A program made the translations under genes and the position numbers. Below are positions 14,075 through 14,752 of a DNA stretch of 28,644 bases, piece by piece (positions within the stretch are counted from its first letter, which is position 1; each line of letters starts with the position of its first letter). Below the pieces are notes generated by a model. That model was given only the letters and a program-made list of their open reading frames with translations, searched no databases and had not been told where the DNA came from. Source of the DNA: a virus (lineage: Duplodnaviria; Heunggongvirae; Uroviricota; Caudoviricetes); IMG/VR virus record IMGVR_UViG_2711768060_000004, positions 1-28,644 of that record; one strand, written 5' to 3'.

Positions 14075-14100
14075 AAAAAAGGCCACGCAAATGCGTAGCC
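14075..14100 (-). terminator. Intrinsic terminator downstream of the 194-aa moron gene
   Basis: Minus strand GGCTACGCAtttGCGTGGCC followed by TTTTTTGTAT, starting 8 nt after the stop at 14108-14110. Confidence 0.6.
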
Positions 14101-14107
14101 TGGTGAT

Positions 14108-14692
14108 TCAGAGATTTTCGAACGATTCCTTTTTACGACTCCAGCCTTCTATCTTCGGCAGAGATGCTTTGCCAAATTTCACCTCATTCATCGACATTAA
14201 GATACTGTCTTTGATGAACTCGCATATCTCGTTAAATTTTGCGTACGTATCTACGTGCGAAAATGTTCTGGCCTGATAACCATCAACTGAAATCGTTATG
14301 TTATCACCATCAAGCAAAAGAATCTTTACACCGACTTTCACCCATTCCGACTGTCGCGGGTTGTCATCAATGACAGTACATAAATCAAATTCAACACCAT
14401 CCTGAAGCTCAACCCACAAATCCTCTGGTTTCTTATCGTGTCCGCGCCACGATATATAAACATACGGGCGTTCTTTGCCGTTAATATCGCGCCACTGTGA
14501 AGCAGGCAATTCCAGGGAATCTTCATAAGCATTGACCAGCCTTTTGGCTGTATCCCGCAACCGCTGAATGTATTCCTGCTCAGCTTTCAGAATTTCGGCC
14601 CGTTTTGCCCTGATATCCACATAAGTGACCACTGTATCAATCCTCTTATGAACAAATAAACAAGCCATCATAATAACCGCCAGGGTATACAT
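14108..14692 (-). CDS. Membrane-anchored hypothetical protein (194 aa), moron
   Basis: MYTLAVIMMACLFVHKR...: N-terminal transmembrane helix then a soluble domain of about 170 aa. AT-rich relative to flanks, no Shine-Dalgarno, bracketed by terminators on both sides; no family recognised. Confidence 0.5.
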   Translation of the reverse strand: MYTLAVIMMACLFVHKRIDTVVTYVDIRAKRAEILKAEQEYIQRLRDTAKRLVNAYEDSLELPASQWRDINGKERPYVYISWRGHDKKPEDLWVELQDGVEFDLCTVIDDNPRQSEWVKVGVKILLLDGDNITISVDGYQARTFSHVDTYAKFNEICEFIKDSILMSMNEVKFGKASLPKIEGWSRKKESFENL

Positions 14693-14725
14693 GAAAAAGA
14701 CCCGCCATAGCGAGCCATGAAAAGA

Positions 14726-14752
14726 CCAAAAAAAACCGCCTGGTGCGGCGGT
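14726..14752 (-). terminator. Intrinsic terminator between the tRNA genes and the moron gene
   Basis: Minus strand ACCGCCgcaccaGGCGGT followed by TTTTTTTT. Confidence 0.6.

Follow-up and report, generated by a model that had tools for sequence, protein, structure and literature searches.

In the Shiga toxin (Stx) paradigm of lambdoid phages, cargo is carried in the order Q, pR', tRNAs, terminator, stx and lysis genes, and its expression is mainly Q-dependent. Another described kind of cargo is the moron, whose definition is attributed to Juhala/Hendrix 2000 and for which lambda bor and lom and HK97 gp15 are reportedly examples. The literature likewise cites HK97 gp15 as a moron example, records that late-operon anti-immunity genes exist in lambdoid phages, and describes Tai/Ati, a tail assembly inhibition immunity with a late-operon antidote in phi80 and its relatives (PMC11364771). 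The present analysis concerns a single minus-strand gene in a 28,644-nucleotide (nt) stretch of Caudoviricetes DNA (IMG/VR record IMGVR_UViG_2711768060_000004, positions 1 to 28,644), the whole of which is hereafter called the window. An initial annotation had described the open reading frame (ORF) 14108..14692 as an independently expressed moron encoding a membrane-anchored protein of 194 amino acids (aa), and an ORF with these coordinates was confirmed on the minus strand of the window, with tRNA-Thr and tRNA-Gly on one side and TerB and the lysis genes on the other. The explanation favoured here, considered reasonably probable as a whole, is that the gene is a non-essential cargo cassette of the late region, located at the stx junction, with a soluble product and mainly late transcription.

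Like stxAB in Stx2 phages, this cargo is encoded on the late strand, in the interval from Q to the lysis genes. The two cargoes are unrelated, the window apparently encoding one cytoplasmic protein of ~187 aa and stxAB a secreted AB5 toxin. The tRNAs of the window are Thr/Gly, not Ile/Arg/Arg as in Stx2 phages, and TerB-DUF3927 lies between the cargo and the holin. With the classical lambdoid morons, the locus shares the status of a single extra gene between genes that are adjacent in relatives, a deviant G+C content, a factor-independent terminator of its own, and placement in late or tail operons on the late strand. It differs from them in that the cassette has no convincing promoter of its own and in that its product is predicted to be soluble and cytoplasmic, whereas bor, lom and gp15 encode envelope proteins. 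Tai/Ati is comparable as single-gene cargo of lambdoid prophage moron loci, with a conflict role that is known for Tai/Ati; one of these moron loci lies between the lysis cassette and the packaging genes, which is where two of the comparison loci (designated by L numbers throughout; here L023 and L029) carry a homologue of the family to which the gene belongs, PHROG 5091. Homology to phi80 orf63/TaiEcA itself was considered and rejected (hhalign probability 0.1, E 0.59). The element is of an ordinary kind, prophage late-region cargo, and nothing in its sequence is categorically new.

A cargo cassette at the stx junction

The cassette and the features that delimit it are as follows.

14071..14688, minus strand: accessory cassette of ~618 bp (Shine-Dalgarno (SD) element, ORF, own terminator), delimited by empty versus filled sites in alignments A3 and A5
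14074..14101, minus strand: T3, the cassette's own intrinsic terminator; hairpin 14101-14080 with a 9-bp stem, U-run, -15.9 kcal/mol, z=-4.7
14694..14716, minus strand: T2, resident slot terminator; hairpin 14716-14699, -10.0 kcal/mol, z=-3.1
14726..14753, minus strand: T1, terminator 3' of the tRNA-Thr/tRNA-Gly pair; hairpin 14753-14734, -12.4 kcal/mol, followed by U8
14995-15069, minus strand: tRNA-Gly(tcc), identified by ARAGORN and Rfam; part of the upstream slot boundary 14995..15148
15073-15148, minus strand: tRNA-Thr(tgt), identified by ARAGORN and Rfam; part of the same boundary

The annotation of Stx2 phage 06-3462 runs from Q through pR', terminators, a methylase remnant, the tRNA promoter, ileZ-argN-argO and a terminator to stx2A, which begins ~50 nt past the post-argO junction. 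In alignment A5, a hairpin, CCAGGCTCGCT..GGCGGGCCTTTTT(C/T)ATAT, follows argO in this phage, in the filled locus L009 and in the empty site of Escherichia coli ATCC 43886, and it is also found as T2 of the window; homology breaks directly after this shared hairpin. The ileZ-argN-argO terminator of allelic prophages is followed at once by the cassette, which begins directly behind GGCCTTTTT(C/T)ATAT; Stx2-phage homology ends there too. At 80% coverage or more, 250 phage records, mostly Stx2-converting phages, contain an ileZ-argN-argO match to the tRNA trio 5' of the L009/L003 allele, with an identity of ~92%. The equivalence of this slot with the stx locus of Stx2 phages, proposed in the initial annotation, holds in these alignments at nucleotide resolution, with an identical junction in each of the sequences compared.

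The content of the slot varies among related prophages. E. coli ATCC 43886 (L005) is empty, with tRNA-Arg, terminator and TerB in succession, E200086 (L003) has identical flanks together with the gene, and CM2010-0578/1 (L006) carries a gene-less, non-coding slot. Relative to the empty ATCC 43886 site and the Stx2 phage, homology stops at the 5' edge of the cassette between CTTTTTCAT(A/G)T and ATAC, and it picks up again at the 3' edge between GGCCTTTTTT(G/A)TAT and CCGCGCC. As initially described, the gene is AT-rich, with a G+C content of 43.8% (46% at third codon positions) where the window averages 51.1% and the TerB and lysis genes lie at 52-57%.

Intrinsic terminators had been reported on both sides of the gene. 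The hairpins with T-runs are real, but the upstream ones, T1 and T2, belong to the slot, that is, to the tRNA module, and only T3 belongs to the gene. T1 closes the tRNA-Thr/Gly unit and is kept in L004, L007 and L014-17. A terminator hairpin with a T-run begins 6-45 nt after the stop codon in 15/15 homologous loci, and because the background probability of a terminator is 0.036 per 81-nt window, this terminator is regarded as part of the cassette. The sequences of T2 and T3 are related (CCAGGCT...GGCCTTTTTnnTAT), T3 being a diverged copy of the T2 type (window 14694-14716 compared with 14074-14101, together with L003, L005, L009 and L031), and therefore a direct repeat of terminator-like sequence flanks the cassette. 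In the empty site, the repeat is present as a single copy. Such an arrangement is consistent with cargo exchange via recombination at 'linker' sequences. Separately, terminators resembling AGG(C)TCGC...GCGGCCTTTTTT were observed 3' of the gene even in homologues at 23-30% identity.

In the proposed mechanism, a lambdoid prophage would have acquired a genuine, dispensable cargo cassette, composed of a ribosome-binding site, the ORF 14108-14671 and its own intrinsic terminator and inserted immediately 3' of the terminator closing the prophage tRNA module, within the leader of the Q-dependent late operon. The insertion site would be the same junction at which Stx2 phages carry stxAB.

Start codon and gene model

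The candidate starts and their associated elements are listed below.

14690..14692, minus strand: ATG of the 194-aa ORF, not a conserved start, 1 nt past the T2 T-run
14108..14671, minus strand: most likely coding sequence, 187 aa (186 aa from ATG 14668), with the family-wide start of PHROG 5091
14676..14681, minus strand: weak SD-like GGCGGT 5' of ATG 14671/14668, anti-SD duplex -6.0 to -6.6 kcal/mol
14630..14647, minus strand: internal candidate start GTG 14632-14630 with the SD AAGAGGA at 14647-14641 (8 nt 5'), giving a 174-aa form

The start was assessed by comparing the DNA of 13 independent lineages. At the position of ATG 14692, the codon is ATA in L003, L009, L010 and L012 and ACG in L007 and L013, and in L008, L011, the L018 clade (L018-25) and L022-24 the region is absent and the upstream sequence unrelated. 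The sole SD-like bases preceding this ATG, GGCGGG, are the 3' arm of the T2 hairpin. Further downstream, 12/13 lineages have an in-frame ATG, or in one lineage a GTG, at a distance of 11-13 codons 5' of a conserved 'M/V-x-I-T-Y', and in Escherichia phage CharmingMan (L002) an in-frame start is found only 5-6 codons 5' of it. The leader between the family start and this motif contains no stop codon in any lineage, and its lengths differ by multiples of three. In distant members, a strong SD stands 6 nt 5' of the family start (AGGAGGTGAT in L036, GAGGAG in L035, AAGGAG in L029, AGGTGAT in L027 and L033), and GGCGGT of the window matches the position of GAGGT, AGGTGAT or AGGAGGTGAT in L022, L023, L026-L029 and L033-L036. 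The 'canonical' codon-21 position holds no start codon at all in several members (P0073, P0062, P0056, P0132). Because of the leader in the 13 lineages, the SD elements and the missing canonical starts, the family start in the window is most likely ATG 14671 or 14668, which would yield a product of 187 or 186 aa in place of the 194 aa originally given; the L003 allele is called 187 aa by PGAP/RefSeq. The reported lack of an SD is true only of ATG 14692, given that AAGAGGA precedes GTG 14632 and the weak GGCGGT precedes ATG 14671/14668.

GTG 14632 may be a second, internal start. No other candidate start has an SD that pairs as strongly with the anti-SD (-8.0 kcal/mol), the position of this GTG (codon 21, 'M/V-x-I-T-Y') is where the PHROG 5091 profile and the majority of 118 cluster representatives begin, and several homologues are annotated from 'MVTY'. 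Two in-frame start candidates 12-13 codons apart, each with an SD-like element, were observed family-wide (window 14630-14671), the paired candidates also being present in the equivalent regions of L018, L022, L023, L026-L029 and L033-L036. Two isoforms are possible on this pattern. In one clade, leader peptides like MN(S/A/T)FNxN(K/E)GRFM seem better conserved than the protein body. A special nucleotide constraint on the 39-nt leader was rejected, since conservation equals that of the adjacent 5' coding part and divergence in the L018 clade is normal. Public annotations vary with the choice of start, giving 194, 187 or 174 aa in this allele group and 160-202 aa in other alleles.

Topology, fold and family of the product

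The revised gene model removes the N-terminal transmembrane helix of the initial annotation. The longest hydrophobic run comprises 13 residues (YTLAVIMMACLFV), shorter than the segment of about 18-20 residues by which a membrane span was defined, and the maximum of a 19-residue Kyte-Doolittle window is 1.59. This run is complete only from the non-conserved ATG 14692 and shrinks to MMACLFV with a start at 14671/14668. Family members begin with polar leader sequences, for example MNSFNNNKGRFM and MLIRNFDYMEKWM, and none of their N-termini is hydrophobic. The membrane anchor and the missing SD are both artefacts, because the wrong start codon was chosen. The product is instead predicted to be a soluble, acidic, cytoplasmic two-layer alpha/beta protein that is not membrane-anchored.

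Two AlphaFold2 (AF2) models were obtained, with a predicted local distance difference test (pLDDT) of 84.8 and 83.7 and a predicted template modelling score of 0.77 and 0.74. From the N- to the C-terminus, a flexible tail of ~12 aa is predicted to lead into a helix of ~36 residues, which is followed by an antiparallel meander sheet built from 8 strand segments, a second helix of 20 residues and, at the end, ~25 disordered residues. In the 187-aa form, a pLDDT<50 was obtained for residues 1-3 and 5-9, with the first helix starting at residue 17. The models are confident. Foldseek returned no match at E<1e-3 in the PDB or in BFVD. The FP (Fbxo7/PI31) dimerisation domain, actin-capping protein, type III secretion chaperones/YbjN-like proteins and frataxin/CyaY, which are two-layer alpha-beta-alpha sandwiches, were listed as closest.

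As the initial annotation had found, the protein cannot be placed in a described family: no Pfam, NCBIfam or PADLOC match was obtained, and the only assignment is to PHROG 5091, which has no assigned function (E=1.1e-44; residues 21-175 of the 194-aa ORF against profile positions 2-162/164). An exhaustive profile search identified 118 cluster representatives at 50% identity that match at E<=1e-3; within it, the match to the 2,983-aa P0031 was spurious, this being a PKD-repeat protein. Across the window protein and 41 family members, searches of Pfam, NCBIfam, PADLOC and PDB sequences gave nothing consistent, and in PADLOC-DB v2 the window protein had no match and the 41 members only isolated ones (best E 0.005, one member each). 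A link to tciC of phage P1 was considered and set aside, since a tblastn search with the protein across the full set of 50,697 phage records matched only CharmingMan. A scan of genome contigs with the family motifs revealed no relatives, and literature searches on the PHROG 5091 identifier, family protein accessions and DUF3927 found nothing relevant. The family is acidic throughout, with a median isoelectric point of 5.05 and a median net charge of -6, and it conserves the motifs Y..SL.L....W.D..G...PYV, F.I.TV.DDSPRGG and EVC..IK, with a conserved TV(I/V)DDxPR loop and a conserved CxxIKD helix; no catalytic signature was found in the product. PHROG 5091 is an uncharacterised family and a reasonable candidate for experimental screening.

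Selection, mosaicism and possible function

The gene is real and under purifying selection, the ratio of nonsynonymous to synonymous substitution rates (dN/dS, omega) being 0.13-0.35 when 28 sequence pairs were compared across 149 codons. In the close group of alleles, codons 41-112 (numbered in the 174-aa form; window 14108-14632) form a variable middle segment with a dS of 0.6-3.2, compared with 0.04-0.2 at the 5' and 3' ends. Positive selection on this segment was rejected, as its omega is 0.09-0.25 and the high dS indicates intragenic recombination. Some copies are decaying: that of L011 is frameshifted near codon 28-30 and that of L013 near codon 30, and truncated gene fragments are annotated in other genomes. 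In L011 (380-520), the sequence directly 5' of the gene is swapped for a segment rich in inverted repeats. A further frameshift, near codon 153-155, was observed in L004, L014-L017 and L021 (allele group P0011/P0012), where the disordered C-terminal tail becomes '...LAKHLCRR'; this allele is the commonest in public data, with one member on 641 contigs, so the C-terminal tail appears dispensable.

The product would be neither an enzyme nor a virion component. It is quite possible, if somewhat less than probable, that it binds a protein partner stoichiometrically in phage-phage or phage-host conflict, a role that could take the form of exclusion/defence or of counter-defence/self-protection during late development.

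The second of these forms can be stated as an explanation in its own right, in which a late-expressed factor shields phage late proteins or DNA from host, prophage or satellite immunity, modelled on phi80 AtiEcA acting against Tai. The constant location of the gene in late operons on the late strand, its small, acidic, non-enzymatic product and its rare and patchy occurrence would all suit such a factor, intragenic mosaicism suggests the exchange of a specificity segment, and precedent is provided by the late-operon anti-immunity genes of lambdoid phages (PMC11364771). However, the protein shows no homology to any known anti-defence protein and has no relationship to phi80 orf63/TaiEcA, the neighbouring genes do not consistently include a cognate defence gene, and the low omega of the middle segment gives no sign of positive selection. 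Counter-defence as the specific function is judged unlikely.

Transcription of the cassette

Q-dependent late transcription is the default reading, suggested by the position of the gene and by the lambda/Stx paradigm. Q-modified RNA polymerase would read through T1, T2 and T3, and the gene would be transcribed mainly with the late genes; expression in a lysogen would require a promoter beyond those identifiable here. The sole promoter-like match 5' of the gene is TTTTCA-16-TATTAT (14697-14670), a 9/12 match to sigma-70, and promoter-like matches occur at chance level (3 found vs 2.5 +/- 1.8 expected). The '-10' TATTAT (14675-14670) is the A/T-rich SD-ATG spacer common to the whole family, and it was rejected as a conserved -10 box after distant loci had shown strong SDs and codon-periodic leader lengths. 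In L008, the cassette boundary lies only ~10 nt 5' of the '-10', so no -35 element is carried along. In L028, ~29 nt separate the stop of the upstream gene from the cargo start (counted from the upstream sequence). No conserved promoter was found in the distant lineages (Xenorhabdus, Morganella, Pectobacterium), and because of this independent expression is unproven.

These data bear directly on the classical moron, a gene with its own sigma-70 promoter and terminator that is expressed in the lysogen and whose membrane-anchored product acts in superinfection exclusion or defence at the envelope. Terminators are present on both sides and the downstream one travels with the gene, as insulation of a lysogen-expressed gene from the lysis genes requires; the spacing of TTTTCA-16-TATTAT is kept in the diverged L018 clade; and low G+C and presence/absence polymorphism agree with this account. 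It is nonetheless improbable, given an anchor that depends on a non-conserved ATG, a hydrophobic run of 13 aa and a family in which no N-terminus is hydrophobic, and given promoter-like matches at chance level, a '-10' that doubles as the SD-ATG spacer, an L008 boundary without a -35, the short gap in L028 and the lack of a promoter conserved in distant lineages. The empty and filled sites, the gene's own terminator and its deviant G+C agree with the moron concept; the independent expression of the earlier proposal does not find support, with the only promoter match at chance frequency.

Several points weigh against the favoured explanation of a late-transcribed cargo cassette with a soluble product. 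Were the gene expressed through antiterminated late transcription alone, it would have no obvious need of a terminator, and the invariable terminator, even inside myovirus tail operons, hints at autonomous transcription; it is the best remaining argument for some transcription of this kind. In addition, the start codon is drawn from comparison, with an SD that at the preferred start is weak or degenerate in this window, and the function is throughout a matter of inference.

Distribution and mobility

The gene occurs in 27/5,426 complete E. coli genomes (0.5%). Distant homologues, at 23-35% identity, are found in Yersinia, Xenorhabdus, Pectobacterium, Morganella and an Erwinia-like symbiont, always as single genes on the late strand and in differing slots. 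These slots include the interval between Q and holin (L026, L034), the position after the lysis cassette and before terminase (L023, L029), and, in E217-like myovirus prophages, the interval between tail chaperone and tape measure or a place among baseplate genes (L027, L028, L033, L036); in strain A19 and L013, the gene lies directly 5' of the holin, without TerB/DUF3927. In Enterobacterales prophages of both siphovirus and myovirus type, homologues are distributed over no fewer than four distinct late-operon slots, and the gene is mobile between such slots, with the terminator travelling along. In the Xenorhabdus griffiniae prophage L033 (3513-3797), the tail-module gap occupied by the homologue also contains a gene on the opposite strand whose Pfam match to GhoS, a type V antitoxin, is weak; this suggests a multi-cargo hotspot at that gap.

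This distribution largely refutes a functional partnership with the TerB/DUF3927 (TciA/TciB-like) pair in a three-gene module. The gene does stand directly 5' of TerB-DUF3927 in the window, in most close homologues and in CharmingMan (27% identity). However, the pair is present in ~425 of the E. coli genomes, ~400 of which are without the cassette, the gene occurs without TerB in L007, L013, L023, L026-L029 and L033-L036, and the strong terminator T3 separates the gene from TerB. A shared insertion hotspot, located at the terminator 5' of TerB, accounts for the adjacency. The partnership is considered highly improbable. A core late function, such as that of a lysis-timing regulator or morphogenesis helper, is judged equally improbable, for although the gene adjoins holins in L007, L013, L026 and L034 and lies within tail/baseplate modules in L027, L028, L033 and L036, it is missing from almost identical prophages whose lysis and packaging genes are unchanged, the modules that harbour it in different phages are unrelated, it exists in frameshifted copies, and it is rare among complete E. 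coli genomes.

Neighbouring genes and further features of the window

The remaining neighbours that frame the cassette are the following.

16923-17618, minus strand: Q, upstream of the tRNAs and the cargo
13513-13938, minus strand: TerB-family gene, downstream neighbour (Pfam TerB, E=4.9e-7)
13364-13516, minus strand: small DUF3927/TciB-like membrane ORF, downstream neighbour

The window holds a lambdoid late region on the minus strand, with RusA, Q, a 106-aa ORF, an N6/N4 DNA methylase, tRNA-Thr, tRNA-Gly and the cargo ORF in that order, followed 3' of the cargo by TerB, the small DUF3927 ORF, two holins, an M15 endolysin, Nu1/gpA terminase and portal. A single strand is common to Q, the DNA methylase, the tRNAs, the cargo gene, TerB, the holins, the endolysin and the terminase. 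The naming of the TerB/DUF3927 pair is based on a match to PHROG 632 and on the RefSeq annotation of the 98%-identical locus L001. The corresponding locus of E. coli STEC383 is 98-99% identical.

Several features lie close to the tRNA genes. In the interval 14754-14994, ~190 nt 3' of tRNA-Gly hold no credible ORF and show 75-80% identity in L004, L006 and L007. A 103-aa ORF with a TTG start in this part of the window crosses T1 and T2 and is probably not real; for the corresponding region of strain A19, the annotation gives a 110-aa 'hypothetical protein'. On the other side of the tRNAs, a 10/12 sigma-70 match, TTGAGA-16-TATTAT, at 15210-15237 on the minus strand, ~60 nt 5' of tRNA-Thr, is a candidate tRNA promoter, which may be likened to the pT annotated in Stx phages. 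Further upstream, a terminator-like hairpin (16526-16509, minus strand) at the stop of the 106-aa ORF 3' of Q may be tR'. In the early region of the prophage, 20006-20178 on the minus strand matches the Rfam sok antitoxin RNA (RF01794, 93.7 bits, E=3.9e-20) and marks a hok/sok-type type I toxin-antitoxin locus.

Implications for prophage cargo

The corrected gene model removes a spurious membrane-anchor prediction that was able to misdirect experiments. Beyond the single locus, PHROG 5091 might tentatively be seen as a new single-protein phage-conflict module, a minimal 'SD-ORF-terminator' cassette that spreads through siphoviral and myoviral late operons of Enterobacterales, perhaps with two isoforms, although this wider proposal must be considered doubtful. 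The locus also illustrates how cargo may be swapped at terminator 'linker' sequences. Among the cargo positions of lambdoid prophages, the stx locus is the best known, and an unrelated, rare gene under purifying selection uses the same junction. The gene at this shared junction is a defined candidate for a new accessory function of prophages, one that is open to testing and possibly involved in conflict.

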